Source: a virus. Taken from it: a stretch of DNA of 64,000 nucleotides. The stretch's first letter is position 1; every line of letters begins with the position of its first letter. Below, one piece after another: positions 25,107-59,093 of the stretch. Both the position numbers and the translations under genes were made by a program. The notes beneath the pieces were generated by a model. It worked only from the letters and a program-made list of their open reading frames with translations, had not been told where the DNA came from and did no database searches. The stretch is taken from the IMG/VR virus record IMGVR_UViG_3300018875_000003, positions 32,001 through 96,000 of that record; one strand, 5' to 3'.

Positions 25107-28100
25107 ATGACAACTACTAACAACAACAAACAAGCTCAAATCAACAAGCAACTGGCTCAAGTTAATCGTCTGTTCAACCAAGCTGTAAAAGGCAACAAAG
25201 TGAAAGCTGAAATGTCCGAACTCAAGTCTGCTTCTGTAATCCTCGATGCGATCGCTACATTCCCAGGACTGGGCGTGAAAACGAAGAACTATGAAGCGAT
25301 CACAGCAGCTATGGCAGAAGGACACAGCCTGCGCAGCATCATGCTTAATCCGGAGCTGACCGGCGTAGCGAAGAACCAATACCGTTACTTCCGTGCATTC
25401 ATGGATGCTAAAGGTGACGACATCCCTGAGATGGTTATGGCTCCGACTCGTAAACGTGTACGTACTGTATCGGTCGATCTGCTGAAGCACTCCCGCAACG
25501 AAGCTGGTGAAGTGGTGCTCAACGCGGAGGTTAACTTCCAATCTCAGTCTCAGCTGGCTGATGCGTTTGGCTCCCTTGCTGCCGACGACAAGAGCGATCT
25601 GTACTTGGATATGGCTCACGTTGTTTACATCGACCTCAACATCGCTGATCAAGAGAATCAGGAATTGAAAGACTTGCAGGTCGAGGTTGTACGCAACGGA
25701 TTCTACTACAGTGTGGATGGCGTTACACACAAAGCCAACTTCTTCATTCAGACAGCATCCCAGGCTCGTCAGCTGCAAGGTATCTACATTGCCGAAGACT
25801 TCATGACGATCCCGCAAGCATTCAAGAAGCTGGGTCATGACTTCCTCGCTTACTGCAAACTGAGCAAAGATGGCATCTATACACTTGACATCACGAAGTA
25901 TCTGAAACGTCCAGGTCTGTCTGGTACAAGCTCGGTATCTTCGAAAGCAATCACATTCCCGAATGCTCGTATCAGCAAGCTGGCTAATATGACTACTGGT
26001 GAATACCTGGTTGAATCCGATCGTCACACGATGGCGGTTATCGAGGATCGCTTTGCAAAGATCACCAATGGCACATTCAAAGCATTCTACAACAACCGTG
26101 TGGTAACTGTGTCTGCTGTTGATGGTGTATTCACCGCTCAATGGAAAGATGGCCGTCTGACTAAACAAGAAGTGCTGCCTATGAACTACCTGAAGCTGGG
26201 TGTAGGCGATGGCTTGGTTCTGGCATCCGAGTCGATCTACTGGGCACTCAAAGCCGAGCATGGCAATGACTCTGACGCATGGCAAGTACGTATCACCCCA
26301 TTCGTTAAAGGTCTGATGGTATTCGTCCCTGGCCTGCGCAAGTATTATGATGCAGACATCGTTGCATTCAAATCCGCTGTGAAAGGTGACTTCCGCCTGA
26401 TCGCTGACGAAGAAGGACGCTTGGACTTTAACATCGAGCTGCGTATTGCTCGCTTTGCTAAACGTCCAGGTAAGAAAGCGGAGTATGTAGAGCTGCCGTA
26501 TCAGTTCGCTCACGTATCCAGCATCACTGCAGAGCAAATGATCAATGTAGCTGCTCCACGTCTGGAGGAAGCAAGAAACGTACTGTCCAACCCTGCACTG
26601 ATCCAGAAGTATACTGGCGTGGCTCACCTCGAAGACCTGAGCAAGCTGACGACTGCGGAAGCTGAGTTTATGCGTGATCGTTCCCTTGTATCCGTATTTG
26701 CTAACTTCATGCACTATGCCCCATTCACGTATGAGGATGCTTACATGCAAACACGCGCTCTGCAACTGATGGGACAGCAAGTAGACAAATGGGTTGCTGG
26801 TACAATCCCTGTAGAAGGCGAGTATCGCTTCATGGTTCAGGATCCGTATGCTCTGCTGCAAGCTGTGGCTGACGAAGATGGTGATATGATTGTTCCCGCT
26901 TCCGTTGGTCTGCGTCCGCATCAAACATTCATGACTGCACGCGATAACAAACACTTTGTGACTGGACCGGTTGCTTCCTTCCGTAACCCAGCGATCGCTA
27001 AAGGTGAAGGCCGCGTACTGAAAGGTGCTGCTCCGGAGAACTATGTAACCGCATCTGCGAAAGGCGCATTCAACTCGGTCTGCATCATGAGCTGCCACGA
27101 TCTGGACACGTTCGCTGAAGGCGGCGCGGATAACGATGGTGACGAAACATTCGTAACGCAAGTGCCTGAGATCGTAAACAGCATCATGGGCAAAGATGGC
27201 GAATCCAAGTTCCTGGCTATGCTTGACCTGCATGTAGGCAAAGATGGTGAGTGGGCTTCCGGTTGCCCGTTCCCTATGGAATCCGATGAGAAGCTGACAT
27301 TCGGTGCAGCATGCGTGGATCACGATGGACAATTCAAAGTGAAGTTCACTGCTGATCAATACGATGATGCTTTCATCCAAGCTGTGCATGAGCTGAGTAA
27401 AGAGTATGTCATCCGCACGCTGAACCCGAACAAGATCGGACAGCAAACAAACATCGCTACACGTCTGGCGGATGCTGTGCGTAAGGTTGGCTATATGTAT
27501 GCTGAGGGTGTAGACGAGTTCGGTCAAGCTGTCGATCGTACCGAAGCAGAGAAACAAGATCTGCTGCATGAGATTGTACGCATGGAAGAAATGATCGATC
27601 TGGTTCGTCTGACACAAGGATGGGAGATTGACCGTGCGAAGCATGGCGGTGCATACGAAGAAGCACTGGCTGCCGAGCTTAACTTCATCAACAACCCACC
27701 GAAGTATGCTGGCTTCCAGGAGAATCCGAAAGCGAAACGCGTATGGATCAAGCAAGCATGGTTGTCTCACCACAAAGGCACTGAAGGTGGAATCGATACA
27801 GGTTCTGTAATGAGCCGCGTACACAACCACATGAAAGCATTCGTACAGGAGAATGTAATCGACAAGTCTGAGGAAATCAAGAACGATGTCGAGAACAACA
27901 ACATCATCCATGTACTGAGAAGCGAATATGCTATCGATGCTAACAAGTATGAGGCTTTGGCTGCTGTGATCCGCTCGATCCGTGCATCCTACACTGCCGA
28001 CCTGATGAATGCCCGCAATAAGAATGCAGAGTTCAACAAGCTGGCTGAAATCAAATACAACGGCAACGACCACGCTATTCGTATGGCGAAAGCTAAGATC

Positions 28101-28667
28101 GAACGTATCTATAGCGAAGATTGCGATGCGATCACATTCAAGCACCAGGCTGCACTCGCTGCACTGGAATTGTCTTACTCTGCTACAGATATCGGCTATG
28201 TATCCTATATGGTGACATATACGGAGCGTGGTAAAGATGGCAACCGCTCGATCAGCTTCCCTTGGGTTGTGGCTAAGAAACAATTCCTGGAGCTGTGCGC
28301 GAAGATTGCTAATCGCGAGATCGTGAAGAATCCTTATCTGGTTCCCGCTTCTGAAATCAAAGCAAACTTCCGTATTGCAGAAGATCCACGCAGCACAGAA
28401 GGCAAACACTATGATGGTATGAAGATGGCTGAGGTTATCAAGCAAGCTGGTTCAATCGAGGTTATGTATACGCTGAACGAGGTAACTGGTGTGTATGGTT
28501 ACGTGGCATTCGTGCCTGTAGGCAGCAGACTGGTATATGTCGGAGATTTCTATCAGGATCAGGTTGCATTCATGACCGGAGCTACCCACTTCGAACTGAA
28601 TGTATCCAATGCAGAAGCAAAAGGACAAGCCATGACCCTGACAGTCTCCAGCGTAGGTCGTAAATAA
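25107..28667 (+). CDS. YonO-like / eukaryotic-RdRP-like single-subunit RNA polymerase
   Basis: Catalytic GADNDGD; GDG.V.AS, WQVR..PFVKG, FRNP, IG..TN and EIDRAKHG motifs in RdRP/YonO order; ATG 25107 after AAAGGGG. Confidence 0.85.
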   Translation: MTTTNNNKQAQINKQLAQVNRLFNQAVKGNKVKAEMSELKSASVILDAIATFPGLGVKTKNYEAITAAMAEGHSLRSIMLNPELTGVAKNQYRYFRAFMDAKGDDIPEMVMAPTRKRVRTVSVDLLKHSRNEAGEVVLNAEVNFQSQSQLADAFGSLAADDKSDLYLDMAHVVYIDLNIADQENQELKDLQVEVVRNGFYYSVDGVTHKANFFIQTASQARQLQGIYIAEDFMTIPQAFKKLGHDFLAYCKLSKDGIYTLDITKYLKRPGLSGTSSVSSKAITFPNARISKLANMTTGEYLVESDRHTMAVIEDRFAKITNGTFKAFYNNRVVTVSAVDGVFTAQWKDGRLTKQEVLPMNYLKLGVGDGLVLASESIYWALKAEHGNDSDAWQVRITPFVKGLMVFVPGLRKYYDADIVAFKSAVKGDFRLIADEEGRLDFNIELRIARFAKRPGKKAEYVELPYQFAHVSSITAEQMINVAAPRLEEARNVLSNPALIQKYTGVAHLEDLSKLTTAEAEFMRDRSLVSVFANFMHYAPFTYEDAYMQTRALQLMGQQVDKWVAGTIPVEGEYRFMVQDPYALLQAVADEDGDMIVPASVGLRPHQTFMTARDNKHFVTGPVASFRNPAIAKGEGRVLKGAAPENYVTASAKGAFNSVCIMSCHDLDTFAEGGADNDGDETFVTQVPEIVNSIMGKDGESKFLAMLDLHVGKDGEWASGCPFPMESDEKLTFGAACVDHDGQFKVKFTADQYDDAFIQAVHELSKEYVIRTLNPNKIGQQTNIATRLADAVRKVGYMYAEGVDEFGQAVDRTEAEKQDLLHEIVRMEEMIDLVRLTQGWEIDRAKHGGAYEEALAAELNFINNPPKYAGFQENPKAKRVWIKQAWLSHHKGTEGGIDTGSVMSRVHNHMKAFVQENVIDKSEEIKNDVENNNIIHVLRSEYAIDANKYEALAAVIRSIRASYTADLMNARNKNAEFNKLAEIKYNGNDHAIRMAKAKIERIYSEDCDAITFKHQAALAALELSYSATDIGYVSYMVTYTERGKDGNRSISFPWVVAKKQFLELCAKIANREIVKNPYLVPASEIKANFRIAEDPRSTEGKHYDGMKMAEVIKQAGSIEVMYTLNEVTGVYGYVAFVPVGSRLVYVGDFYQDQVAFMTGATHFELNVSNAEAKGQAMTLTVSSVGRK

Positions 28668-28689
28668 CACGAAGCACTCATGAGATTTA

Positions 28690-29066
28690 CTGCAGTCGGT
28701 GTGTTCTCAGCACATCGACTGCACCCTTATTATAGCACACCCTTCGGGTAGGTGCTAATGCTATCGACAGACGCCTGCATGCTGCCCTGTGACGCCCTGC
28801 TCCTCTCGCATGACGAATCCTTCGACCGACAAGAAGGAAGCGGCAGACGAGACGACAGGCGGCTTATAGGACGCGTTCTTATGCAGCGGCTTATATATAG
28901 GCAAACTTACGGCAACTCAGCTCGACGGCTGAATCATACGATTATTGCGACCGGTGTGTGAGGGAGCTGCTTCGCACCACGATCGTTGCTGTTATTCGTA
29001 AGCTGAAATATAGCCTGTTTTCCTATATAGTCGATGGCATCATCACCTACCCGAAGGGTGTGCTAT
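28690..29066. ncRNA. Highly structured non-coding element downstream of RNAP
   Basis: Perfect 23-bp inverted repeat 28732-28754/29044-29066 enclosing nested stems. Confidence 0.5.
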
Positions 29067-29115
29067 TCCTGGGCGTATGCGTATTTTGCGTATGTTGCTA
29101 TATGTGTGTGATCGA

Positions 29116-29170
29116 TATCATATATCGTATTTCATACGTTGTATGCTCATTTCATATTTCGTATATCATA
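29116..29170. repeat. Heptad repeat array (TWTCRTA-like)
   Basis: tatcata tatcgta tttcata cgttgta tgctca tttcata tttcgta tatcata. Confidence 0.7.
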
Positions 29171-29277
29171 TGCTATCGAAAGAGGTGAACCCACATCCGA
29201 AAATTTCTTGCTACTTGAGTATGATTTCATATAGCCTATATAGGTATCTTATGATGAAATAGGATGCTGTAGACGAA

Positions 29278-29306
29278 GGTCGCTAACGCTCCTGTGGCTT
29301 TGTGAA
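29278..29306 (+). promoter_or_regulatory. Hairpin-GGCT element copy 1 (candidate phage RNAP promoter)
   Basis: ggtcgcTAACgctcc-tgt-GGCT-ttgTGAa. Confidence 0.55.
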
Positions 29307-29392
29307 TGTGTGTCTTATGAGTATGGCTATATGCTAATCGGACATACGCGAATGACGATAGATATACTATGACTATATAGGGAGATGTATAT

Positions 29393-29689
29393 ATGAGTTA
29401 TCCTGATTGGCAACCTAAGTTTGATTTCAATGACGATCTTGTTTGTATAGAGAGATACTTCGATAATGAGAATGTCGATGATCTGGCTCCATCTATAGAG
29501 ATGGTTGTTGGTAAAGGTATTACTCTAACGTTGATTCCTTCAGCTTTATTCCCTGCATATAGGGTGAACAATGCACAAGGTGAATGTATTGGTCATATTA
29601 GTCGTGAGACATCTCTTTATCTTGTTACTCTATATCCTCGTGCTATGAGTGATGGACAGATTAAGTATCTTCGTTCATTGCGTAAATAG
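29393..29689 (+). CDS. Hypothetical protein
   Basis: 98 aa; GGGAG RBS. Confidence 0.65.
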   Translation: MSYPDWQPKFDFNDDLVCIERYFDNENVDDLAPSIEMVVGKGITLTLIPSALFPAYRVNNAQGECIGHISRETSLYLVTLYPRAMSDGQIKYLRSLRK

Positions 29690-29837
29690 CATATATGATG
29701 ATGGCTATATAGGTTGTTTATGCTATATAGACTTTATATCGTTAGATATATGATTAATAGGATGGCGCTTTGCCTTTTTTTCTTTTGCCAATCCTTTGGA
29801 TCGGCGCTAAAACACTATGCAATGGGGGTTCCATCAC

Positions 29838-30065
29838 ATGGAAGCATTCATCAGGTTCTACGCTAAAGTCAATCCAGGACACTGGGCTTTGGATATTCGT
29901 CATTCGAGTATAGTCGATTGGTCTATCACCGTTGGCTATAAGGCATCGCATCCGAAGTATGGCGAAAGCATTATTCATGTACAGGGTTGGGATGTCGATC
30001 TGGCCTTTGCGAAAGCACAGGTTCAGCTGAAAGAATGGTTGACCGAACATAACGGCGGCTATTGA
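29838..30065 (+). CDS. Hypothetical protein
   Basis: GGGGG RBS before MEAFIRF. Confidence 0.6.
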   Translation: MEAFIRFYAKVNPGHWALDIRHSSIVDWSITVGYKASHPKYGESIIHVQGWDVDLAFAKAQVQLKEWLTEHNGGY

Positions 30066-30090
30066 TTAACTATATAGGAGGATTCATCAT

Positions 30091-30375
30091 ATGAAGAAAA
30101 CGATCGCCATGCGCCAGTCATCCGTATATGGTGCTATATCCAAGATGATTAATGCCATGTCTGGAGATTCTATTCAGTTTCAAACGGCAGTGAAGATGTA
30201 TAAGCGATTTGCTACAGGCTTTGTTCTAAGAGAGAACGAGGTGGCTTTCTTTCTCCGCGAGCTGGTTGATGCTGGTCACTTGCACCTGGAGGTAAACGAT
30301 CAAGGCAAAGAGATGTTGTCGCTCACTCCAGCGGGAGACGAATACCATACCATAAGCTTTGGTGATGACGAATGA
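30091..30375 (+). CDS. Hypothetical protein (possible winged helix)
   Basis: AGGAGG RBS; LVDAGHL..LSLTPAG. Confidence 0.65.
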   Translation: MKKTIAMRQSSVYGAISKMINAMSGDSIQFQTAVKMYKRFATGFVLRENEVAFFLRELVDAGHLHLEVNDQGKEMLSLTPAGDEYHTISFGDDE

Positions 30376-31528: not shown

Positions 31529-31532
31529 TATC

Positions 31533-32651: not shown

Positions 32652-32680
32652 GGTCGCTAACGCTCCATCGGCTTGACGAT
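32652..32680 (+). promoter_or_regulatory. Hairpin-GGCT element copy 2
   Basis: ggtcgcTAACgctcc-atc-GGCT-tgaCGAt, about 15 nt before a GGAGG RBS. Confidence 0.55.
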
Positions 32681-34639: not shown

Positions 34640-34957
34640 ATGACTCAGCGTAAAGGCTTCAATGATTTCTTCACGTTCACCCGAGATGATAAGTTTATTC
34701 AGAATAAGACCTATCTCATTCATCTGATGCAGCTGGTCGAGTCCATGGATGAAAACTGCGATATGTCCGTTACTTCCACCGGTAGGATCCTGATGCTCTT
34801 TTTCGAAGAAGATGGCATGTCTGCACACATCGATGTTAATTTGGACCACATCCTCACCTATATTGATCGGTTACTCAAGCTGCAAGCTCACACTGATTTC
34901 TTCACTACACAAGTTGACCGCGATAAGATATACGAATGCTTCACCATTAACGAATGA
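34640..34957 (+). CDS. Hypothetical protein
   Basis: AGGAGG RBS. Confidence 0.65.
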   Translation: MTQRKGFNDFFTFTRDDKFIQNKTYLIHLMQLVESMDENCDMSVTSTGRILMLFFEEDGMSAHIDVNLDHILTYIDRLLKLQAHTDFFTTQVDRDKIYECFTINE

Positions 34958-36301: not shown

Positions 36302-36330
36302 GCAGCCTACGGCTGCAGTGGCTTTATGAT
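36302..36330 (+). promoter_or_regulatory. Hairpin-GGCT element copy 3
   Basis: gcagccTACggctgc-agt-GGCT-ttaTGAt, just before a GGGAGG RBS. Confidence 0.55.
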
Positions 36331-38576: not shown

Positions 38577-38643
38577 AGTCGGCTTGGCGACTATAAATAG
38601 GCCTTTGGCCAAGCGCGGGCTCCCGGGTCGTCGGGAGTATGGC
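38577..38643 (+). ncRNA. Pistol-like ribozyme
   Basis: P1 AGUCG/CGACU; loop GCUUGG pairs with CCAAGC (pseudoknot); AUAAAUAG linker; P2 GCC/GGC; GCG; P3 GCUCCCG/CGGGAGU. Confidence 0.78.
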
Positions 38644-38674
38644 AACACATACTATTCCAAACGAGGTGCTTACT

Positions 38675-38887: not shown

Positions 38888-39252
38888 TTCGTTTCCCTAT
38901 GCCTGTAACCACCCCATGTATAGGGTTTTAAATGGGTTTTAATCTTTTCCAAAATTGGACAGACTCTGCCCCAAGGCTGCTGTATATGTATCTTACTTCG
39001 TAAGCTCATTCTAAAGAAGGATCAGACGATTCTGTGCGACAGTTTCCTTCTTGTTTCGGAAGCTGCCGTTTTTGCTCCTCCTTTTTATTTTATCATTCTA
39101 CTTCCAAAGAAAGCTGACGATAAATACCAGCGTTACTTCTTTCGATTCCTTCGTTAGCTTTCTCTATATATAAAGATTACCGGAAAACATGGGGTAAATA
39201 CACACAGTCACAGAATGTTCACAATTTGTTCACAATTAGCTTATAATTAACT

Positions 39253-40953: not shown

Positions 40954-41129
40954 ACGAACACTTTATCTACTTGGATACGGTCGAAAGCATCCGAAGCTAT
41001 TTTAGGTCTGAAGAAGAATCGAAGCGTGAACGTCAGATGGAGGCCCGCGATCCACGTACCAATAGAGCAAACTTCCGCAACGGTGTCCGCAGTATGCTTG
41101 AGAATCGCAAGTCTCGACGGTATTGTTAA
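40950..41129 (+). CDS. Small basic protein
   Basis: GGAGGTGA RBS; GTG start overlapping upstream stop. Confidence 0.55.
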   Translation: MNEHFIYLDTVESIRSYFRSEEESKRERQMEARDPRTNRANFRNGVRSMLENRKSRRYC

Positions 41130-41140: not shown

Positions 41141-41170
41141 GCAGTCTAACGACTGCACAGGCTTCTTGAT
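41141..41170 (+). promoter_or_regulatory. Hairpin-GGCT element copy 4
   Basis: gcagtcTAACgactgc-aca-GGCT-tctTGAt, about 20 nt before an RBS. Confidence 0.55.
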
Positions 41171-41204
41171 AAAAATAAAACATACACTTGGAGGAATACA
41201 CACT

Positions 41205-41534
41205 ATGAACGCGAATATCACTATTAAAGGTCTGTCTATCCACAACATAAAGCCGGTTGAAGGTTCCGATCGTGAAGAGCAAACACATATCAAGCTGGAT
41301 GAGATCACATTCAGTCTGACTCCGGATTCTCCGAAGCCACAGATTCACCCGATGGTGGATTCGCTCATGGATGATCTGATGGATCATCTCCCTGGATTCC
41401 TCGGTAAGAAACACGGCATGGGCGATCTGCCAAGCCACATCATTGTTGGCGGTCCGTTCGGTCCGAATGACATTCCAGACGAAATCAAGGACGCGATGTC
41501 AGAAGAACTCAAGAAAATGCTCGGCATCCACTAA
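41205..41534 (+). CDS. Hypothetical protein
   Basis: GGAGG RBS. Confidence 0.65.
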   Translation: MNANITIKGLSIHNIKPVEGSDREEQTHIKLDEITFSLTPDSPKPQIHPMVDSLMDDLMDHLPGFLGKKHGMGDLPSHIIVGGPFGPNDIPDEIKDAMSEELKKMLGIH

Positions 41535-41669
41535 TTCATATATCATATGAAATATTAAATACGAAATACGATCTTGGTCTATATCATACGATATAGGCCT
41601 TTTTCGTATGTAATTCTTCATATCATATGATATATGAAATATGTTATACGATATAGATCATATATCATA
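41534..41669. repeat. Heptad repeat array (two blocks)
   Basis: attcata tatcata tgaaata ttaaata cgaaata ... tatcata tgatata tgaaata tgttata cgatata gatcata tatcata. Confidence 0.75.
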
Positions 41670-42774: not shown

Positions 42775-43205
42775 AATGTAAATCGGAGGTTACGCTCGAT
42801 TTCGGGGATGCAAACTACTCTGAAGCGCTGAAGCTTGCTGATCAGATCGATAAGCGCCCGATGGAATGCCCTGGCTTCCATGTTGAGGTTGGCGGCTGGA
42901 AAAAGTACTGGCAGATCGTCAACGCGATTGATTCTGCCTACAGCGAAGAAGATAAAGATGCTTGTCGGGATATTGTAAGGCGTATCATTGTCAAACTACC
43001 CGATAGTTCTACTCCTGAAAAAGAACATGAGTTCAAAACGGAACAGGAGACGCATCAATTCGTAACTGGTCTTATCGATGGCGGAATGAGCGATCTTACT
43101 TCTCTGATTGTAACGCATTTCAATGCACTGAAAGAATATATTGGCGAGTACAAAGGCTCTGCCAAGAAAATACTGACTTATCTGGACGACAGCTATCTGT
43201 ATTAG
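42744..43205 (+). CDS. Hypothetical protein with possible Zn site
   Basis: CLKC..ECPGFHVE. Confidence 0.65.
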   Translation: MGKQIKTTCLKCKSEVTLDFGDANYSEALKLADQIDKRPMECPGFHVEVGGWKKYWQIVNAIDSAYSEEDKDACRDIVRRIIVKLPDSSTPEKEHEFKTEQETHQFVTGLIDGGMSDLTSLIVTHFNALKEYIGEYKGSAKKILTYLDDSYLY

Positions 43206-43232
43206 TCGCTGACGCTCCCCGGGCTATATGAA
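43204..43232 (+). promoter_or_regulatory. Hairpin-GGCT element copy 5
   Basis: agtcgcTGACgctcc-ccg-GGCT-ataTGAa, about 10 nt before GGAGG. Confidence 0.55.
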
Positions 43233-44725: not shown

Positions 44726-44850
44726 ATAGACACTGCTACAGCACCTGACGCTTTCATAGATCAGGTGTTGAATGAATTGCCTATTTAACACAAATAAGTA
44801 TTGAACAATGAGTTAACGTGTTATAATGTATGGAGAAAGGAGGAGTCATC

Positions 44851-46725
44851 TTGATTCAAGTTCGCAGTCAATATGAAAATGTATACATCAAAGTCCTTGA
44901 TAACCCCGATACGATCGACTACACACTTTCCAAGGTTAGAAGTCTGCCCGGGCGCGCATTTAATATGCAGACTGGCGAATGGATGATCTCCCGTGATCAA
45001 GTCGGACCGCTTTTATTCAATTTCAGTAACCAAATTATTTGGATGACGCCGCTCAAAGAAATTGTTGCAGGTCTTGAGATACACGATGAGGTCGTTCAAA
45101 AGCATCTGCAATGGGAAGCGGAATCCGAATTTAAAAACTTTAAACTGTCGCTCTATCCTTATCAGAAGGTGGGAGCAAATTTCCTGATCGATCGCGGATG
45201 CGGAGCTATATTCGATGGATGTGGTCTCGGCAAGACACCGCAGCTGATTGGCGCCTGCGAAAAGATATTCGAGCGTGTTCGCGGTGGACGTGCGCTGATC
45301 GTCACCTTGAACTCACTGAAACGTCAGTGGGCAAGAGAGATTGAGAAGTTTACCGGTAAGCCAGCAATTCCTGTAACCGGCACCGCTTCTCAAAGAGCGA
45401 AACTAATCAAAGGATTCGCCAGTCATAAGAAGACACAGTACCTGGTGATCAACTATGAGATGTTGCGCGATGATAAACTTCGTAAGATGATTACGGATAT
45501 TCCATTCAGCGCTGTTGGACTCGACGAGGCTCAGAAGATTAAGAATGGTGTTACAGACACTCATCTAAAAATGTTCCCGAGCCAGATTGCCGCAGCAACC
45601 CATGAGCTGAAGTATATCCCGCATCGCTTTATTGCAACGGCTACGCCAATGCAGGGCAAGGCAGAGGAAGTGTGGAGCCTATTTTACTTTATCGATGAAA
45701 ACATCCTCGGTAATTGGTATGTCTTTCGTGATAAGTATTGCGAATACGGAACCAAGTTTGGCATCACCGGCTACAAAGACCTGGGCGAGCTTTACTACCG
45801 AATCGCTCCGTATTTTATACGACGGACAAAAGAGAACCCAGAGGTTCAGCAGCAGCTGCCTACGGTGACGAGTGATCCGATTTTCCTTGACATGACCGAT
45901 AAGCAGCGCCAGCTCCATGACTATCTTCTGGATAAGTACATGGAGGTGAAGGAGACTGCGAAGAAGGTTACATCCAGCCCGAACCAGTATCAATTTATCG
46001 CTGGGAGGAGCATGTCCAAAGACGAAGCCAAGGAGTATTATGATTCCCTTGCGCAAGGCTATCAGATATTCATGCTCAGTGTTTGTGATTCTCCTGAGCT
46101 GCTGGTCATGTCCGATTCATCCATGGCACAGAATGTCCTTAAAGATATTCCGCTGTCAGAGAAAGACCTCAAGTCACCGAAGGTTGACCACATCGTTCAG
46201 TTCTACGAGCAGATGACGTTTGACGAACCCAATTCTAAAGTCGTTATCTTCACGCAGTTCTCGCGGATGGCAATGCTCATCCAGAAGAAGCTGAAAAACT
46301 CGGTCATCTACCACGGCGGACTCAGTGATAATGCCAAAGAGTTTGCGAAGGATCAATTCGTAAGCAATCCCAATATTAAAGCGATCGTCTGCACAGATGC
46401 CGGAAGCACCGGTCTGAATCTGCAGGTGGCCAACTACATGATCCATGCCGACTTGCCTTGGGATCCAACCCTGGTTGAACAGCGAAATGGCCGGATCGAT
46501 CGCACCGGTAATAAGTTTAGCAACGTAAACATCTATTACACCATCATGAATGGTGGGTATGATGAACATCTGCTGGACATCCTGGAGCGAAAATCTACCA
46601 TGTCCAATATGGTTATTGATGGCGGCAGGGCAACGGCTTCATCGTCCAATATCAGCAAACTGGCCATGGATAAGATGGTCAAGGATCGTAAGAAGCAAAT
46701 GAAGCCTGCAGCCGTCCTAAATTAA
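44851..46725 (+). CDS. SNF2-family helicase
   Basis: LYPYQ, GLGKT, DEAQKIKN, TATP, GLNLQ.A, QRNGRIDR.G. Confidence 0.92.
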   Translation: MIQVRSQYENVYIKVLDNPDTIDYTLSKVRSLPGRAFNMQTGEWMISRDQVGPLLFNFSNQIIWMTPLKEIVAGLEIHDEVVQKHLQWEAESEFKNFKLSLYPYQKVGANFLIDRGCGAIFDGCGLGKTPQLIGACEKIFERVRGGRALIVTLNSLKRQWAREIEKFTGKPAIPVTGTASQRAKLIKGFASHKKTQYLVINYEMLRDDKLRKMITDIPFSAVGLDEAQKIKNGVTDTHLKMFPSQIAAATHELKYIPHRFIATATPMQGKAEEVWSLFYFIDENILGNWYVFRDKYCEYGTKFGITGYKDLGELYYRIAPYFIRRTKENPEVQQQLPTVTSDPIFLDMTDKQRQLHDYLLDKYMEVKETAKKVTSSPNQYQFIAGRSMSKDEAKEYYDSLAQGYQIFMLSVCDSPELLVMSDSSMAQNVLKDIPLSEKDLKSPKVDHIVQFYEQMTFDEPNSKVVIFTQFSRMAMLIQKKLKNSVIYHGGLSDNAKEFAKDQFVSNPNIKAIVCTDAGSTGLNLQVANYMIHADLPWDPTLVEQRNGRIDRTGNKFSNVNIYYTIMNGGYDEHLLDILERKSTMSNMVIDGGRATASSSNISKLAMDKMVKDRKKQMKPAAVLN

Positions 46726-49677: not shown

Positions 49678-50112
49678 ATGGAATTTTCACAAGAGCAAGA
49701 AAACAAAGACCTGGAGCAGCAGAAGCAAATCGATTATTTGAAGCAGGCGGTTGAGCCGGATCCCGAGGATGAAGAAGGCGGCGATGATGCTGCCGGCAAT
49801 ACTGCCGAGGAAGAAGATGTGGAGCTCGACTTGTTCGGGCAGCCGATTCAATCTACTCGGAAGTCTAAGCCGAAGCCAAAGGTCAACGCGGAGAAGCCAG
49901 CAAGTAAAGATGAGAAGTATGGCACCGATTGGATATGCCTGGTGTACGACCAGCGGATTCCTGTTCCGGAAGATGATATGACTCTGGATAAGATTCGTCA
50001 CTTCTTGGAAATGGACTATCCTCAGTTTTCCAAGGATCGCACCGAAATGATGGTGGACAAGGCTCAGAAGTATATCATTCCGAACGTGGCCAAAGCACCG
50101 AAGAAGGGGTGA
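49678..50112 (+). CDS. Ubiquitin-like protein with acidic disordered N-terminus
   Basis: C-term domain P..DMTLDKIR.FL..DYPQF ending KKG; between E2 and E1. Confidence 0.6.
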   Translation: MEFSQEQENKDLEQQKQIDYLKQAVEPDPEDEEGGDDAAGNTAEEEDVELDLFGQPIQSTRKSKPKPKVNAEKPASKDEKYGTDWICLVYDQRIPVPEDDMTLDKIRHFLEMDYPQFSKDRTEMMVDKAQKYIIPNVAKAPKKG

Positions 50113-51020: not shown

Positions 51021-51058
51021 TGTAACGCGTTGCAAAACATAGGGTAAAATGCTATGAT
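51021..51058 (+). promoter_or_regulatory. SigA-type promoter with two nearby operators (50987-51000, 51021-51034)
   Basis: TTGCAA-17-TATGAT; TGTAACGTGTTACA and TGTAACGCGTTGCA. Confidence 0.6.
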
Positions 51059-51095
51059 AAGCTACGACAACCGAACAAAGCGAGGTGGAAACAGA

Positions 51096-51800
51096 ATGAA
51101 AGATCGCAGATTTTATGCGACCGGCGTCATTAATGTCCTTCTTGCTGCCGCACTTGTTACTAACGCCCAAGAGGCACATAGTAGCTTGCAACAAAAGCAC
51201 AACACGATACATGACTTAAACCAGACTGTCGATAAGCAGCAGCAAACGATCGACAACCAGCAGAAGGAGCTGGCCGATCAGAAAAAGCTGGCGCAGGAAA
51301 ACAACGATCTGGTCTACAAACTCAATCTTCTCAAGGAGAAGAGGGAAGAGGATCAGAGCAAGTTTGATCGACAACTGGAAGCGCAAAATCGTTTGTTCAC
51401 TCAGAAGATTGAGAAGCTTTCGGGCGAAAAAGAACAAGCAAAGCAAAGTACGATTGCTATGCCTACAAAGCTAGGTGAAAGCAGTCGTGCCGGTTCGTCT
51501 TATTTGGCTACGTACTATGATTTAGGCGTTGCATCAACAGGTAAGAGACCTGGAGATAACGGTTATGGAATTACCCGCAGCGGACGCTATGTAGAATCAG
51601 GCGTTACGATTGCAGTAGATCCATCCGTCATTCCTCTGGGTTCATGGGTCGAAGTCGTGTATCCAGACGGCAGAAAAGAGAGACGACGTGCTGACGATAC
51701 GGGTCGTTTGATCAAAGGTCATCACATCGATATCTATGTTCCTGATGCGTCAGGGTACGGAAGAGACACTGTTAAAGTCCGGGTGCTTTCGCTCCCGTAG
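51096..51800 (+). CDS. Secreted coiled-coil + 3D-domain cell-wall protein
   Basis: Signal/TM; ATYY..GITRSG..IAVDPSVIPLGS..ADDTG..IKGHHIDIY. Confidence 0.85.
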   Translation: MKDRRFYATGVINVLLAAALVTNAQEAHSSLQQKHNTIHDLNQTVDKQQQTIDNQQKELADQKKLAQENNDLVYKLNLLKEKREEDQSKFDRQLEAQNRLFTQKIEKLSGEKEQAKQSTIAMPTKLGESSRAGSSYLATYYDLGVASTGKRPGDNGYGITRSGRYVESGVTIAVDPSVIPLGSWVEVVYPDGRKERRRADDTGRLIKGHHIDIYVPDASGYGRDTVKVRVLSLP

Positions 51801-51844: not shown

Positions 51845-52084
51845 ATGATGGAAGGGCAAGGAGATTTATTCAACGATCTTGTTCCACCGGCGAGAAATGA
51901 AGAGCCAGCAGCACATGCTCCGCTGGAAAGAGAAGACTTACTGCGTACTGCATTTGTACTCAGCAATGTGCTGCTTAATGTTTTGATCGAGAAAGGCATC
52001 ATTACTGAGGCCGAATCGAACGATCTTTTGGGCGCAGCGCTGAAGGAATACCAAAAGAAGGTGAAGCTGAATGAAAACTCTTAA
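51845..52084 (+). CDS. Hypothetical protein
   Basis: AAGGAGG RBS; LIEKGIITE.E. Confidence 0.65.
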   Translation: MMEGQGDLFNDLVPPARNEEPAAHAPLEREDLLRTAFVLSNVLLNVLIEKGIITEAESNDLLGAALKEYQKKVKLNENS

Positions 52085-52409: not shown

Positions 52410-52585
52410 GGAATGTACTGGTTTTTCCAGACGGCACCGAGCAGGATTTTATGTATCCTCCGGACCGCGATGTCACTGTCGGAGAGAAGTTGGTTTTGCA
52501 AATGACAGACAATTCGGAACACCACTTTGTTGTGGCTGAAATCGTGCATGAAGCAAAACGGATTCTCTACAAGCTGTCGTATTAG
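52406..52585 (+). CDS. Hypothetical small protein
   Basis: ATGA overlap; MRNVLVFPDGTEQDFMYP. Confidence 0.55.
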   Translation: MRNVLVFPDGTEQDFMYPPDRDVTVGEKLVLQMTDNSEHHFVVAEIVHEAKRILYKLSY

Positions 52586-52613
52586 GTCGCTGACGCTCCG
52601 TTGGCTTCTTGAA
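52585..52613 (+). promoter_or_regulatory. Hairpin-GGCT element copy 6 (upstream of ssb-recA)
   Basis: ggtcgcTGACgctcc-gtt-GGCT-tctTGAa. Confidence 0.55.
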
Positions 52614-53444: not shown

Positions 53445-53465
53445 TCAGTAAGCAGGTGATGCACT

Positions 53466-53840
53466 ATGTCTCAGCATAAACCTGCAGAAGCCTTTAAGCG
53501 CTTCCTGCACGGCATCTTCGCCTTTTATCGAGATAAGGGGATGAACGTGCAGGGAGCAAAAGGCCGAATGTATGAGGAATCCCTCGACAGCATCTATGAA
53601 ATGATGAAGTCCGAGGAAGACATCCCTGATCATTCGACCGTGATTTCTGCACAGTTCGCAGTCCGGACGCTTCAGGCTCGCGGCCAAGCGTTAACCAAAC
53701 AATTAGAGTCCGCTATAGCGGCCGGAGATGAACAGTTGATCGCAACACTCCGAGTCGCTATAAGCGACTTGCATAAGACAAGAGTCGCCCTTAACGACTT
53801 CATTGTCAATTATAAAGGGGTGTTCGATCATGGCAGGTAA
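53466..53840 (+). CDS. Hypothetical protein
   Basis: AGGTGA RBS. Confidence 0.65.
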   Translation: MSQHKPAEAFKRFLHGIFAFYRDKGMNVQGAKGRMYEESLDSIYEMMKSEEDIPDHSTVISAQFAVRTLQARGQALTKQLESAIAAGDEQLIATLRVAISDLHKTRVALNDFIVNYKGVFDHGR

Positions 53841-55020
53841 AGCAACAGCAGAGAAAAAAGCAGCCACAGAGAAAAAATCGCCAACGATGATGGATAACAA
53901 AGCCATCCAAGCGGACTTCAACAAGCGCTTTGGCGAAGGCACATTCTTCACTCTTGGCGGCAGCGATCGGGCAAAGGTTACACCGATCCCTACCGGTATT
54001 CCGACCCTGGATTATTGCAGTGGCATCGGTGGTATTCCCTCCGGTCGAATCATTGAGATTTACGGCGCAGAGTCTTCGGGTAAAACCAGCCTGTGCCTCA
54101 TGGTTGCCGCAGAGTTTCAGAAGCTTGCGAGACTTCCAGGTCCGTTCTTCGGAAAGAAAGTCGGCTTCATCGATGCAGAGCACGCACTTGATCCGCTTCA
54201 CGTTCAGAATCTGGGCGTTGACGTTTCTCCGGAGACAGGTATGCTGATCAATCAGCCGGAGACCGGAGAAGGCGCATTTGATTTGATGGAAGCCATGTGC
54301 CAATCTGGACAGTTTGGCTTGGTCATTGTCGATTCAGCTGCAGCACTCGTGCCGCTGGCGGAAGTCGAGAATGATATGGAGTATAACCCGATTGGTTTGC
54401 AAGCTCGCATGTTGGGTAAAGGTTTGCGTAAGCTAAAAGGGCCTGCGCATACAACAAATACGGCATTTATCTTTATCAACCAGCTGCGTGAGAAGCCAGG
54501 CATGAAGGGTATGGTAGTTAATACAACACCAGGCGGTAAAGCACTGCGGTTCTACGCATCTATGCGTATGGAAGTGAAAGCAACCAAGATCGTCAAGAGC
54601 AATACCGAGTTGGGTCTTGCAACAACAGTGAAGATCGTCAAAAACAAAGTTGCCGTTCCGTTTACGACAGCCGAGTATGATTACTACTGGATCGGAGGTG
54701 TCGATCGAGTCAAAAACATCATGGATGTTGCCGTAGACCTGGGCGTCATCCATCAGCGCGGTGCGTACTACTTCTATGGTCCGGATCCATCCGACAGCAA
54801 GAACGTCTACAAAGACGGTGCAGGCAACGAATTGAAATGGCAAGGCAAAGATGCTTTGCTGGAAGCTCTCCGTGTCAGTCCGGCATTGTATGAGTACACG
54901 AACGACCTTGTTCTGGGTAAGATTCCAAGCGACACAGTTTTTGTGGACGAGTCTGCGGATTCGGAAGAAGAACTGAAAGACGAGGAAGGCGCAACCGAAG
55001 AAGAAATGACTTTAATCTAA
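53830..55020 (+). CDS. recA: RecA recombinase
   Basis: GRIIEIYGAESSGKT, FIDAEHALDP, VDSAAALVP, FINQLR, TPGGKALRFYAS. Confidence 0.95.
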   Translation: MAGKATAEKKAATEKKSPTMMDNKAIQADFNKRFGEGTFFTLGGSDRAKVTPIPTGIPTLDYCSGIGGIPSGRIIEIYGAESSGKTSLCLMVAAEFQKLARLPGPFFGKKVGFIDAEHALDPLHVQNLGVDVSPETGMLINQPETGEGAFDLMEAMCQSGQFGLVIVDSAAALVPLAEVENDMEYNPIGLQARMLGKGLRKLKGPAHTTNTAFIFINQLREKPGMKGMVVNTTPGGKALRFYASMRMEVKATKIVKSNTELGLATTVKIVKNKVAVPFTTAEYDYYWIGGVDRVKNIMDVAVDLGVIHQRGAYYFYGPDPSDSKNVYKDGAGNELKWQGKDALLEALRVSPALYEYTNDLVLGKIPSDTVFVDESADSEEELKDEEGATEEEMTLI

Positions 55021-55037
55021 AATAGGGAGTGGTTGAA

Positions 55038-55861: not shown

Positions 55862-55913
55862 GTTAATGACAGTAAGTATTTCAAATTTTTTTCAATTTCG
55901 TTCCATAATTTCG

Positions 55914-55942
55914 TTGACATGTTTTGATAGATTCTTTATAAT
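55914..55942 (+). promoter_or_regulatory. Consensus SigA promoter
   Basis: TTGACA-17-TATAAT. Confidence 0.8.
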
Positions 55943-56012
55943 CGAAAAAGTAAATCGGTAATCGATGGAAACGTGAGGATTCCAAAGAGATCGAGCAGGA
56001 GTGTGAGCTTTT

Positions 56013-56426
56013 ATGGAAATAAGACAGCTAGAGAGAAGACTTGCTGCGGATTACGCCAAGGTCATTAAAGCATCGACCGGTAGAGGTCCGTTAGATTGCA
56101 AGGTACGCATCGTGGATTCCGTAATCATCTTCCGTAGTAGGCTTGATTTCACAATGTTGGAGCAAACCATGTTTAGTCAGTTGAAGATATCTGGTGTTGT
56201 AGACGCTATGCTTGATCAATGGGCAGAGCAGTTGATGCCGATCCTCACCAAAATGGTGGAGCCTTTGCGACACGGAGTTCAAATCCAGCAAATCCAGTTG
56301 TCATCCGGCATTCCTAATTCTTATTGCGTCTGCGTATGTCACTTAAACATGGACCTTGAAAAAATGATACTTACCGAACCTTCTCTTGCTGGCGGTGTTC
56401 CCGCTCAAAGAGAAGCCTTTCATTAA
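56013..56426 (+). CDS. DUF2294 (MpsC-like) protein
   Basis: K..TGRGP..KV.I....I.......T.LE pattern. Confidence 0.6.
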   Translation: MEIRQLERRLAADYAKVIKASTGRGPLDCKVRIVDSVIIFRSRLDFTMLEQTMFSQLKISGVVDAMLDQWAEQLMPILTKMVEPLRHGVQIQQIQLSSGIPNSYCVCVCHLNMDLEKMILTEPSLAGGVPAQREAFH

Positions 56427-56711
56427 ACGATAAGCAATTAGCTGAAATAGTGATGTTCAGCTAGGGCTGGTCAGAAACCTATTACATTTTGGGTATACTG
56501 TCCGGCCTTTTTTATGCCTTAATCCTTCAAAAATTCGCGCAATCGTCAGCTTTTCGGAGTAATATGCCTCTTCCGCTATTGCCGCATACTTAAAATGCGG
56601 CGCATTCTATCTTTTCGCTTTGTAACGTGTTATAATATCGTTAACAAGTGGAGTAGTGTGCGTTGCTTTGTGCCAAAAGGCAATGCAAAATTGCGAGGGG
56701 GATGAACAATC

Positions 56712-57344: not shown

Positions 57345-57369
57345 GACCGCCAAGGGGGAACATGTCCAC

Positions 57370-57975
57370 ATGCTTAATACTTTGACCAAACAATCACGCA
57401 CATCTGATACTGTTGCGCGCTGGGTAGCCAGCTCCGTCATGAATGGCGGAGCTTTAGGTGGGGATGACTACCGCCAAAGCCTAGCGCTTTCTTTTGCCAA
57501 TAATCCCGCATTCAGCGGCATGGTAAAAAACCTGATGGGTGACGTGCTCTGCGATAAAATGTCGAATATGTTGGATGAGTTTGACCGCCCTTCGCTGGAC
57601 GAGTCGTATTACCGTATAGCAATGGTCAAAGGGAAGCTTGTACATGTTGAGGCAGACTATGAATTTTGCTGCAGAATTGGAGTAACTTCCTATCAATTTC
57701 TGGGCAAAGAGCTTTCAGAGGAATTTATGCCTGAAAAGTACGTGGACAATGCGCGGGAGTGCTATTCTCGCGCATGGAATGGTGAGACTGTGGATTTCAT
57801 CAGCAGTGGACTTACGGGAGAGTCTTACCGAGCCAAATTAAAGCCCGTCTACGACGATGACGGCATTCTACGATTTGTGGAAGTCATTTGTCGCTTTACG
57901 AACTCGATCGAGATCGATCAGAGTGTTCGGGATGAAATTGGGGAGTTTCAACCCACTCAATATGTATTAATGTAA
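57370..57975 (+). CDS. PAS-like domain protein
   Basis: F.GK.L.E..P..Y.RAW.GE..L.PVYDDDG. Confidence 0.55.
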   Translation: MLNTLTKQSRTSDTVARWVASSVMNGGALGGDDYRQSLALSFANNPAFSGMVKNLMGDVLCDKMSNMLDEFDRPSLDESYYRIAMVKGKLVHVEADYEFCCRIGVTSYQFLGKELSEEFMPEKYVDNARECYSRAWNGETVDFISSGLTGESYRAKLKPVYDDDGILRFVEVICRFTNSIEIDQSVRDEIGEFQPTQYVLM

Positions 57976-57996
57976 TTCCGCGAGGAGTGACTGTAT

Positions 57997-58464
57997 GTGG
58001 CTGTAATCGACATTCTGCTTATGGAAGATTTGATGTACTGGAATGAATTAACCTCAAATTACGAACATGAAACAAAGAATTTAAAAGTTCCAAAAGAAAA
58101 TTCAACAGTCACATTATTGGACTTCAATATGCGACTGGATGAGCTCTATACTCGCGCTGCGTATGATTATGGCCGAATACGCAGAATGAAAGATATCATG
58201 GACGGCCTGCTTGAGAGTGTTCTGAAGGATCTATACTCGGGTGCTAATGATGCAGCGAGACGCGCTGGCGGCATCCAACATGCCCGGAGGTTTCCTGTTG
58301 AGGGATATCCTTTTGAGGCTGTCAATCTGTATGAACTGCAAGCCAATATCTTAAACCTGTATTACTCAATGCAAGCAACAATCAAAGCCATCGAAGGAAA
58401 GCTTGGTGCGAAAATCACCAGCAATGCCTTACTCAAGATTGAATACGAGTCGTTGTCAAAGTAG
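57997..58464 (+). CDS. Hypothetical helical protein
   Basis: 155 aa; GAGGAG RBS. Confidence 0.65.
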   Translation: MAVIDILLMEDLMYWNELTSNYEHETKNLKVPKENSTVTLLDFNMRLDELYTRAAYDYGRIRRMKDIMDGLLESVLKDLYSGANDAARRAGGIQHARRFPVEGYPFEAVNLYELQANILNLYYSMQATIKAIEGKLGAKITSNALLKIEYESLSK

Positions 58465-58523
58465 ACAGAGAAAGCGGTCTGGTTCTCCAGGCCGCTATTT
58501 CATATATATTGGAGGGATCAATC

Positions 58524-59072
58524 ATGTCCGAATGCGAGCATGCTGACAACTGCGCCAACCTGGGGAAGTCCTGCCGAAAGTGTTTCGGATACAATATGTT
58601 CCGCCCCAAGAAAGAACAGCGCCGCCTGGGTCAACAATCCGGGGCCAAAAAGAGCAAGAAGGAAGGCATGGCGTTTGAGGAGCGTGGAACCAAGAAATAC
58701 AACCAGGCGGTTTCTCAGGCAAAGGATGTAGCCAAGCGGCAGATCGCATCAGGAGCCTTATATTACGCGCTGGGCGATATGATTACAGAAGAAGCCCTCA
58801 CTGCAGCCCTTGCGGAATATAAGGAGCGCGGCACGTTAAGCTCGACCGGTGCCAAGCAAATTACGATTAAGAAGGAATGGCTGGATAAGCTGGAGGAGGA
58901 GGCAAAACTCATGAATCGTGAGTTTTACTTTCTCCCCTTCACCTTCAAAGATCAGGATCAAGATTATGTCGTGATGAATTACGATCGGATGCTTGCCTAT
59001 GTGCAGATCATCCAGGTACTTCAAGAACAGGTTCAGTATTACCGCAGCAAACTCGAAGACCAAGCCGACTGA
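58524..59072 (+). CDS. PD-(D/E)XK nuclease, Holliday-resolvase-like
   Basis: G.AFE..R..ASGA..GD..AEYK..ITIKKEWL. Confidence 0.6.
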   Translation: MSECEHADNCANLGKSCRKCFGYNMFRPKKEQRRLGQQSGAKKSKKEGMAFEERGTKKYNQAVSQAKDVAKRQIASGALYYALGDMITEEALTAALAEYKERGTLSSTGAKQITIKKEWLDKLEEEAKLMNREFYFLPFTFKDQDQDYVVMNYDRMLAYVQIIQVLQEQVQYYRSKLEDQAD

Positions 59073-59093
59073 CGCCGGCAAGGGCTTTACGAA
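59064..59093 (+). promoter_or_regulatory. Hairpin-GGCT element copy 7
   Basis: gccgacTGACgccggc-aag-GGCT-ttaCGAa, just before an RBS. Confidence 0.5.

Follow-up and report, generated by a model that had tools for sequence, protein, structure and literature searches.

Putative template-strand hairpin promoters downstream of a QDE-1/RDR-type phage RNA polymerase gene

Which signals tell a single-chain, two-barrel phage RNA polymerase where to start? The question is raised by the window analyzed here, a 64,000-nucleotide stretch of DNA from an uncultured jumbo phage of the Bacillus type, comprising bases 32001-96000 of the 116,980-bp IMG/VR record IMGVR_UViG_3300018875_000003 (G000). The record is judged 59% complete, and related records measure 190-229 kb. 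The minus arm of the record carries packaging and virion genes, including those for the portal (10555-12765) and the large terminase (14263-16023). The plus arm begins with the gene of a 1186-aa polymerase, followed by small open reading frames (ORFs) and then by replication and recombination genes, which encode helicases, a UvsX-like recombinase, a clamp-loader-like ATPase, a primase, and a thymidylate-synthase-like protein. Small hairpins coupled to a short sequence box recur along this arm. We consider it fairly probable that they are middle-gene promoters read by the phage's own QDE-1/RdRP-like polymerase (RdRP, RNA-dependent RNA polymerase) and N4-like in logic, along the lines that an initial annotation of this DNA had suggested.

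Hairpin-plus-box elements downstream of a two-barrel polymerase gene

The seven elements that had been annotated on the plus arm were all found at their positions on the plus strand (Table 1). Each consists of a 5' arm, a TAAC, TGAC, or TAC loop closed by C and G, a 3' arm of 5 or 6 nt, a spacer of 3 nt, and the box GGCT-W-NN-Y-GA. The composite pattern C(TRAC/TAC)G-N7-9-GGCTWNNYGA matched seven times on the plus strand of the window and never on the minus strand; the counts for the whole record were eight and zero. Chance expectation from 300 first-order Markov simulations of the window was a mean of 0.023 matches (maximum, 1), and the reversed window gave none. The 10-nt box GGCTWNNYGA alone occurred at chance level (14 matches versus 7.6 +/- 2.9). 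The spacer was exactly 3 nt in all eight copies, provided that a length of 5 nt (GCTCC type) or 6 nt is assigned to the 3' arm. The eight copies are all situated 3' of the polymerase gene, the structural arm being free of them, and a covariance model (CM) of 14 copies found no extra copy elsewhere in the record, structural arm included.

The elements are intergenic or overlap only the upstream stop codon. The upstream frames end at 29262 or 29188, 32566, 36300, 41129, 43205, 52585, and 59072, and the hairpins start from 86 nt past the frame end to 8 nt before it. A GGAGG-like ribosome-binding site (RBS) follows the box by 8-20 nt in six of the seven elements, the exception being element 1. The distance from the end of the box to the start codon is 19-35 nt in six copies of the record and 87 nt for element 1; at element 3, a short frame begins after 20 nt and the next longer ORF after 127 nt. 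Element 4 precedes gene 41205-41534 and element 7, whose loop contains the upstream stop codon, precedes gene 59112-59837. Each of these genes is ended by a canonical terminator, giving two units of element, gene, and terminator (41141..41599 and 59064..59870). Element 6 heads an operon with the UvsX/RecA-like recombinase gene (53803-55020). In these respects, namely position, spacing, and RBS proximity, the initial annotation was borne out. Its statement that no SigA boxes surround the elements held within 50 nt upstream of five of the seven; weak 9/12 sigma-70-like matches were found at the other two (29226-29255 and 41098-41126). The totals of sigma-70-like matches in the region showed no excess over shuffles (30 versus 38.1 +/- 7.1 and 32 versus 30.9 +/- 5.1), and measured against the definition of a sigma-70/SigA promoter (-35 and -10 hexamers with a 16-18-nt spacer upstream of the start), the elements do not qualify. 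Nor do they have the form of an intrinsic terminator, a G+C-rich stem with a T run 0-2 nt behind it: a scan of the plus strand called none of the seven elements terminator-like, and canonical terminators sit elsewhere, at 34956, 37869, 41576, and 59842.

The 1186-aa protein gave no match with its own sequence in Pfam (E 0.1), PHROG, PDB, or a tblastn search against the phage collection. Its identity was therefore assigned from its homologues, a fold model, and a fold search. Among its 22 homologues, 10 carry the Pfam RdRP domain PF05183, and the metal motif GGADNDGD (GGADxDGD) is invariant in an alignment of 21 sequences, as are D675, D677, and D679. The AlphaFold (AF2) model (pLDDT 85.3, pTM 0.76) matched QDE-1 best in Foldseek (E 6e-19, TM 0.42/0.53), followed by plant RDR2 and the virion polymerase gp66 of crAss phage phi14:2 (E 1.2e-4); these solved folds share 9-13% sequence identity with it, and chains of multisubunit polymerases entered the list only at E >0.03. 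Thus two double-psi beta-barrels and a DxDGD metal loop are combined in one modeled chain, which agrees with the earlier assignment to double-psi-barrel, single-subunit RNA polymerases. The accompanying label "YonO-like" fits only loosely, because the model is closest to QDE-1 and RDR2. A relative at ~35% identity matches the YonO homologue of the SPbeta-like phage BUCT082 at 22% over 274 aa (E 4e-6). The model places the protein in the QDE-1/RDR branch of two-barrel polymerases, as a phage representative with a remote link to SPbeta YonO, and its predicted activity is promoter-specific, DNA-dependent RNA synthesis. A 1139-codon ORF antisense to the gene (25026-28445, minus strand) was taken as an artefact of the sense frame, its product having a non-protein-like composition (K 1.2%, M 0.7%, C 4.8%).

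Recurrence of the layout and the strand that folds

A motif and covariance search across the genome and its relatives, proposed earlier as a check, showed that the layout recurs, co-oriented, downstream of the orthologous polymerase gene from 81% down to 24% identity, in every related lineage in which a motif was found. What is shared is a variable, co-varying stem, a fixed T..C loop, and a short box mostly ending in YGA. The closest relative (G001; 206,307 bp; polymerase 81% identical) has six copies by pattern and three more by the CM, all on the polymerase strand from ~0.6 kb to ~56 kb downstream of the gene. New stem sequences appear there (GAAGCC/GGCTTC, GCTATC/GATAGC, and GGAGCC/GGCTCC). 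Peculiarities are retained in the orthologous copies: that of element 7 has the same A.C, and those of elements 1 and 6 are again of the GTCGC..GCTCC form. Judging from these sequences and from the more distant lineages (Table 1), loop and box drift with polymerase divergence and the layout is retained. Whole-record pattern searches gave forward/reverse counts of 7/0 in G003, 6/1 in G004, 2/0 in G002, and 0/1 in G006, with 0-1 in controls; G005 gave 0/3, the polymerase itself being on the reverse strand. The G004 record measures 228,841 bp, and the NCBI annotation places its polymerase (P0011) on a plasmid of Paenibacillus rhizovicinus.

Perfect hairpins of at least 6 bp in the distant loci, judged by eye, formed no recurrent class; the class surfaced through repeated 9-mers and then a T..C loop filter. 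Where sites were chosen by nothing but loop and box, all four pairs beside the closing pair were Watson-Crick at 30 of 199 sites of the gene strand, compared with 0 of 158 for the other strand. Because the T..C filter is circular for a claim about the loop, the test was repeated with sites chosen by box only: 14 of 18 hairpins had a T..C loop, and the opposite strand gave six hairpins, none of this kind. In five lineages (the window clade, 0305phi8-36, L027, L030, and L034), T..C sense loops emerged from scans that applied no filter on the loop. As a separate observation, the ~35% lineages share another class of small hairpin, (A)CCC-TTC(G)-GGG(T), which recurs shortly after the polymerase gene and sometimes adjoins a T..C-loop element.

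The most distant of these polymerases belongs to a cultured phage. The gp99 protein of Bacillus thuringiensis phage 0305phi8-36 is of similar length and 24% identical over 450 aa (E 7e-11). Hardies, Thomas, and Serwer (2007, PMC2147016) described in this phage a set of 14 candidate promoters, each of 21 bp and phage-specific, which they proposed as middle promoters of the RdRP-like gp99. In our scan, the motif core is CGT-TCGC-ACG, flanked by 3-5 further free complementary pairs, and the distance from the core to the GTA that follows it (..TGTA box) is constant at 9 nt. Exact matches to CGTTCGCACG number 19 on the gene strand, including the copy in the terminal repeat, and zero on the opposite strand. 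The published candidates are thus predicted hairpins. The text of the 2007 paper that was searched ties no wording such as hairpin, stem, inverted repeat, dyad, or palindrome to the motif. The view that such a mode is undescribed for YonO-type enzymes therefore needs to be narrowed: phage-specific promoters for this polymerase type are in print, and it is their hairpin nature that goes unmentioned in the searched text (PMC2147016). In both phages, a homologous polymerase gene heads a one-directional arm in which small early genes are followed by replication genes, and a recurrent, co-oriented, intergenic hairpin-plus-box motif (8/0 in our record) accompanies it. The phages differ in the loop (TCGC versus TRAC here), in the box (T-rich TGTA versus GGCTWNNYGA), and in the spacing, which is fixed from the loop in 0305phi8-36 and from the stem base in the window phage. 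The window-clade CM had no match up to E 1 in the 0305phi8-36 locus (L020); the layout is shared and the 21-bp consensus is not.

Within the window clade, the stems vary and the pairing is largely kept. GCAGTC/GACTGC and GCAGCC/GGCTGC pair perfectly, as had been noted, and GCCGAC/GCCGGC, cited with them, contains one A.C. In an alignment of 14 copies from the window phage and the 81% relative, 75.9% of cells pair and four of the six pairs change on both sides. The covariation score was 0.282 versus 0.098 in shuffles (0 of 500 reached it) and was above that of all six slid registers. Because MAFFT shifted the triloop copy W36302 by one column and misplaced the gap of the GCTCC-type copies (column 17), this count underestimates the pairing. 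Four GGTCGC..GCTCC-type copies had been described as pairing only partially, which is correct, but they represent a conserved variant and not a degenerate one: the GTCGC-loop-GCTCC form accounts for four of the eight copies here, three in G001, two or three in L034, and one in G004.

The variant bears on the question of which strand folds. Its coding strand would hold tandem C.T/T.C mismatches, and its template strand holds 5'-GA/3'-AG between G-C pairs, a tandem with very strong sheared stacking in DNA (PMC8163305). From the literature on such tandems, this stem suggests template-strand folding. Likewise, the A.C of element 7 and of its ortholog in G001 becomes a G.T wobble on the template strand. 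Nearest-neighbor DNA energies favor the template strand in 13 of the 14 copies, by 0.3-3.4 kcal/mol, and nine of these copies have DNA folding energies between -2.6 and -6.5 kcal/mol. The d(cGNNAg) tetraloop is a stable class in DNA. The template-strand loops of the window phage clade (GTTA, GTCA, GTA, and GTAA) fit the stable GNA/GNNA types, as anticipated, and those of the relatives (GACA, GATA, GGA, and GCGA) are also all G..A, an assignment made by sequence only. Loops of the d(GNA) type closed by C-G are unusually stable (PMC3201870). Taken together, the template strand is likely the one that folds.

The promoter reading and its rivals

We propose the following course of events. The polymerase gene would be expressed first, by another enzyme. 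Its product would then recognize a small hairpin extruded on the template strand, the 5-6-bp stem being free in sequence and the C-G-closed GNA/GNNA loop being fixed, together with the 10-nt box (GGCTWNNYGA in coding-strand letters) at a fixed 3 nt from the stem base. RNA would start at or near the G of YGA, leaving leaders of ~20-36 nt to the start codons of the helicase, UvsX-like recombinase, and primase operons. We favor this reading because an unconventional polymerase must have start signals and only this motif class tracks it; because the elements adjoin the RBSs of middle-type genes, form units of element, gene, and terminator, and lack terminator form; and because enzymes of the QDE-1 fold prefer single-stranded DNA. 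For QDE-1 and gp66 of crAss phage phi14:2, duplex DNA is a far poorer template than single-stranded or denatured DNA (bioRxiv 10.1101/2020.03.07.982082), and this preference, seen for QDE-1, RDR2, and gp66, fits a promoter that presents a single-stranded structure. Unlike the enzyme in our proposal, QDE-1 and RDR2 have no promoters, and for gp66 the same study describes no common motif upstream of the early transcripts (bioRxiv 10.1101/2020.03.07.982082). What stands of the original interpretation is a real structure-plus-sequence family tied to the two-barrel polymerase by position and cross-lineage covariation; we infer promoter function, folding strand, transcription start site, and reader enzyme from the sequence.

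Several observations weigh against this reading. Five of the 14 clade copies fold at a mere -0.5 to -0.9 kcal/mol (GCTCC variant, -0.8), and the stem mismatches that could inform on the strand are too few (~3 A.C, 1 G.T, and 4 others). The T..C loop served as a filter in some of the scans of the lineages, the pairing count included. One 0305phi8-36 copy lies ~100 nt upstream of the polymerase gene orf99 itself (Table 1); if the elements are the polymerase's promoters, this copy would imply positive autoregulation. A second candidate RNA polymerase co-occurs in four of four complete relatives tested. The remaining points concern the ends of genes. The hairpins abut upstream stop codons, which lie between 86 nt before the hairpin and 8 nt inside it in the window, and ~12 of 16 copies in 0305phi8-36 begin at most 22 nt after an annotated stop, a position that also fits a 3'-end or processing signal. 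T-rich tails occur in G001 (GGCTTTTTGA in five of six pattern copies) and in 0305phi8-36, where the stem of several copies is immediately followed by a T run. The oligo-T hairpin behind orf81, which was described as a terminator (PMC2147016), may be one of the 0305phi8-36 element copies. The stems of the ~35% lineages are flanked by a conserved T...G, which might form a U.G pair in RNA.

These last points, that is, the tight fit to stop codons in both phages, the T-rich tails, the orf81 hairpin, and the possible U.G pair, are also those that speak for an element acting in RNA. Such an element would be a processing, stabilizing, or attenuating signal in read-through transcripts, or a terminator specific to the polymerase, and would mark ends instead of starts. 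In keeping with this, most copies lie inside co-directional gene strings without a preceding terminator, the perfect stems fold well as RNA (-6 to -9.5 kcal/mol), and RNA processing does occur in this arm, as its Pistol self-cleaving ribozyme shows. Against it, the T runs of the window copies, where present, lie 6 nt from the stem, and three of eight boxes are not T-rich. The terminator form of this reading was rejected for the window copies, since none of the seven was called on the plus strand and canonical terminators exist separately. Moreover, a transcript ending at an element would leave only the 19-35 nt to the start codon, with no room for a sigma-A promoter. The sense loops, UNNC or UNC closed by C-G, are not known to belong to any stable RNA loop class; their complements are stable DNA loops. 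In RNA, the GTCGC..GCTCC variant would hold tandem pyrimidine mismatches, and the A.C of element 7 is retained in the G001 ortholog. There is also no obvious reason for an RNA signal to co-vary with the polymerase family across 24-81% identity. We therefore regard a role in RNA as unlikely, although it is the best placed of the alternatives.

The next alternative keeps the elements as promoters and assigns them to another enzyme, either the host RNA polymerase with a phage factor or a 2,256-aa protein encoded in the tail module, a putative exonuclease-fused two-barrel enzyme that may be an injected polymerase. The initial annotation did not weigh this second candidate, which carries ADSDGD. 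It is conserved at 32-78% identity in G001, G004, G005, and G006, the four complete relatives tested, and gave no match in a fifth record (51% complete). Because it is present in all four, co-occurrence cannot separate the two enzymes in the window clade. In phage N4, it is the injected enzyme that uses the hairpin promoters (PMC4496689), and for 0305phi8-36 the authors stated that the host polymerase could not be excluded as reader of the motif (PMC2147016). On the other hand, 0305phi8-36 has the elements and gp99 and no BLAST-detectable homologue of the 2,256-aa protein; gp99 is the sole D.DGD protein in frames of at least 400 aa over the ~180 kb scanned (all but 130,000-168,999). This evidence weakly favors the QDE-1-like enzyme as the reader. 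By the authors' account, 0305phi8-36 encodes no sigma factor (PMC2147016). In the window phage, the elements begin only downstream of the QDE-1-like gene and serve replication genes, not the first-entering genes, and five of the seven sites have no -35/-10 boxes. A different reader is thus improbable in our judgment. A relevant parallel is Thermus phage P23-45, which also encodes two divergent two-barrel polymerases that use separate promoter classes, namely the tape-measure-fused virion polymerase gp96, of the tail module, and the non-virion polymerase gp64 (bioRxiv 10.1101/2022.12.01.518664). The P23-45 enzymes are not close homologues of those described here. By analogy, a relay in which a virion enzyme acts first and a non-virion enzyme next would be a natural model for the window phage.

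That the elements are DNA signals unrelated to initiation, such as sites for replication, recombination, or nucleoid proteins or a mobile mini-repeat, is very improbable: they do lie in the replication-gene region and small hairpin repeats can spread as mobile or recombination sequences, but the strict strand bias (8/0 here and 19/0 in 0305phi8-36), the fixed site just upstream of the RBS, the free stem sequence with pairing kept, and the conservation of orthologous sites between G000 and G001 all stand against it and suit a signal tied to transcription better.

Table 1. Elements, polymerase genes, and associated signals. Positions refer to the window unless another record or locus is named.
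Feature	Position	Strand	Composition	Remarks
RNA polymerase gene	25107..28667	+	single-chain, two-barrel, QDE-1/RDR type (PF05183-like), 1186 aa	predicted from motif and fold model
Terminator-like hairpin	28691..28723	+	15-bp stem, weak T tail	directly 3' of the polymerase gene
Element 1	29278..29305	+	(G)GTCGC-TAAC-GCTCC, tgt, GGCTTTGTGA	CM 38.5 bits; next start 29393; G001 ortholog 60279
Element 2	32652..32679	+	(G)GTCGC-TAAC-GCTCC, atc, GGCTTGACGA	CM 33.0 bits; then RBS, ATG 32709
Element 3 (triloop)	36302..36329	+	GCAGCC-TAC-GGCTGC, agt, GGCTTTATGA	CM 29.7 bits; RBS, ATG 36349 opens short frame; next ORF 36457
Element 4	41141..41169	+	GCAGTC-TAAC-GACTGC, aca, GGCTTCTTGA	CM 43.0 bits; identical stem in G001 at 49897
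Canonical intrinsic terminator	41576..41599	+	10-bp stem and T run	closes the element 4 unit
Element 5	43204..43231	+	(A)GTCGC-TGAC-GCTCC, ccg, GGCTATATGA	CM 30.2 bits; heads operon with helicase 44830-46725
Element 6	52585..52612	+	(G)GTCGC-TGAC-GCTCC, gtt, GGCTTCTTGA	CM 40.8 bits; G001 ortholog 37288
Element 7	59064..59092	+	GCCGAC-TGAC-GCCGGC, aag, GGCTTTACGA	CM 42.6 bits; G001 ortholog 30871
Canonical intrinsic terminator	59842..59870	+	12-bp stem and T run	closes the element 7 unit
Element 8	record 102513, beyond the window	+	composite pattern	fronts primase gene, heads primase operon
Candidate second (virion) RNA polymerase	G000:C1:6207-12977, outside the window	-	2,256 aa, ADSDGD at residue 1826	weak RNase_T/exonuclease match
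Elements of L034			loop TAAC / TGAC; box TTCWTGGYGAA	polymerase 43% identity
Elements of G002, G003			loop TGAC; box TTC-N4-5-(Y/A)GAT	polymerase ~35% identity
Elements of G004, G005			loop TGTC / TATC; box ATTC-N4-YGATG	polymerase ~35% identity
Elements of L027			GCC-TCC-GGC; box ATTTGGTGAAA	polymerase 29% identity; six copies
0305phi8-36 copy near orf99	L020, record EF583821 211780-211789	-	bulged stem, TGTA at right distance	
Second hairpin class	L028 14752-17790; L030 13427; L032 13760, 21009; L023 13523; L024 13770		(A)CCC-TTC(G)-GGG(T)	

Other signals, known systems, and implications

Other signals were found in the same phage. A 14-bp palindrome, TGTAAC-RY-GTTACA, occurs in both arms (window 12823, 21115, 23766, and 50987; record 20316), often 8-10 nt upstream of a -10-like hexamer, as at the portal gene and an L-Ala-D-Glu peptidase-like gene (51054-51800), and relatives carry TGTAATGCATTACA-type palindromes. 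It looks like an operator or activator site of a separate, perhaps late, promoter class. Weighed as the polymerase's own promoter, the TGTAACRYGTTACA palindromes look like regulator-dependent promoters of the host polymerase, but one of the two phage enzymes may read them. A cluster of C(C)TATA(TA)GG motifs occupies window 23800-30100, where 19 of the 23 record matches (overlapping and both-strand matches included) fall in non-coding stretches flanking the polymerase gene. Some run into an RBS (CTATATAGGgag..ATG), and L028, L031, and L032 have CTATAGG-like motifs ~1.5 kb ahead of the polymerase gene. The cluster is a possible pre-early signal; the CTATATAGG cluster, which flanks the polymerase gene and partly overlaps RBSs, was also weighed as the polymerase's own promoter and may be a target of one of the two phage enzymes. 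A perfect sigma-70/SigA consensus, TTGACA-17-TATAAT, stands at 55914-55942 on the plus strand before ORF 56013-56426, and a second strong match (11/12) at 39218-39247; the hairpin elements therefore have host-type promoters scattered among them. In 0305phi8-36, host-type promoters are likewise interspersed with the phage-specific candidates (PMC2147016). The Pistol ribozyme (Rfam RF02679) at 38577-38644 on the plus strand, in the early/middle arm, scored 49.1 bits versus a gathering score of 34.5; its first bases match GGCTWNNYGA by chance, and the same sequence is found in G001 near 51977.

The nearest known system in logic is that of phage N4, and the analogy drawn in the initial annotation is apt with regard to the G..A template loops, the paired stems of free sequence, and the fixed short spacing. 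The N4 promoters P1-P3 are small hairpins of 5-7 bp with a partly free stem in which pairing matters (PMC4496689); here, the stems are 5-6 bp, the loops 3-4 nt, and the pairs co-vary as described above. N4 has a fixed template-strand purine loop with a sheared G:A pair (GNA), to which its stability is owed, and the extrusion of such short hairpins at physiological supercoiling has been demonstrated (PMC4496689). The loops here are G..A in their letters. N4 hairpins lie at a short, fixed distance from the start, ~11 nt from the loop centre (PMC4496689), whereas here the fixed distance seen is the 3 nt from stem base to box, and YGA lies ~19-21 nt away from the loop centre with the conserved 10-nt box between. 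N4 hairpins serve an injected enzyme and the first genes; the elements here follow the gene of a non-virion polymerase and stand before replication genes. In fold, the T7-like single-subunit polymerase of N4 is unrelated to the two-barrel enzyme; the elements may act as N4 promoters do, but they are not members of the N4 system.

SPbeta YonO resembles the polymerase here as a single-chain, two-barrel enzyme of the rifampicin-type-independent, RdRP-related branch, and differs in that the genes it drives are late genes, served by a single mapped start (Forrest et al. 2017, PMC5467207). The sequence of its promoter, P-YONO, was stated to remain to be determined (PMC5467207). The yonN-yonK region of the SPbeta-like phage BUCT082 contained no similar hairpin-plus-box; this comparison was given no weight, the enzymes being very distant. 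In a literature search conducted mostly without subscription journals, no paper on hairpin promoters for a two-barrel polymerase was found, and the papers found on hairpin promoters of phage polymerases all dealt with N4 and its relatives.

For the promoters of YonO- and RdRP-like phage RNA polymerases, these elements offer a concrete candidate signal that recurs over 24-81% polymerase identity. They also yield an explicit structural hypothesis, a template-strand hairpin and box with a start at YGA, and 0305phi8-36 on B. thuringiensis provides a cultured test system. Because the polymerase family is rare (101 cluster representatives at E <=0.001 and 36 at <=1e-30 among 1.84 billion), the result bears on mechanism and evolution and not on abundance. 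If the promoter reading is true, hairpin promoters would not be a peculiarity of N4 and would instead be a recurrent solution for polymerases that need a single-stranded template, and the elements would supply compact, orthogonal promoter-polymerase pairs. We put forward more tentatively, as a possibility somewhat short of an even chance, that an extruded template-strand mini-hairpin, with a GNA/GNNA loop, a free stem, and in some cases tandem G.A pairs, followed by a short melting or start box, is the general promoter type of the whole QDE-1/RdRP-like phage polymerase branch. In that case, structural promoters of the N4 style would have been invented a second time, independently, by an enzyme with the cellular two-barrel fold, and the preference of RNA interference polymerases for single-stranded DNA would be tied to an ancestral mode of promoter recognition.

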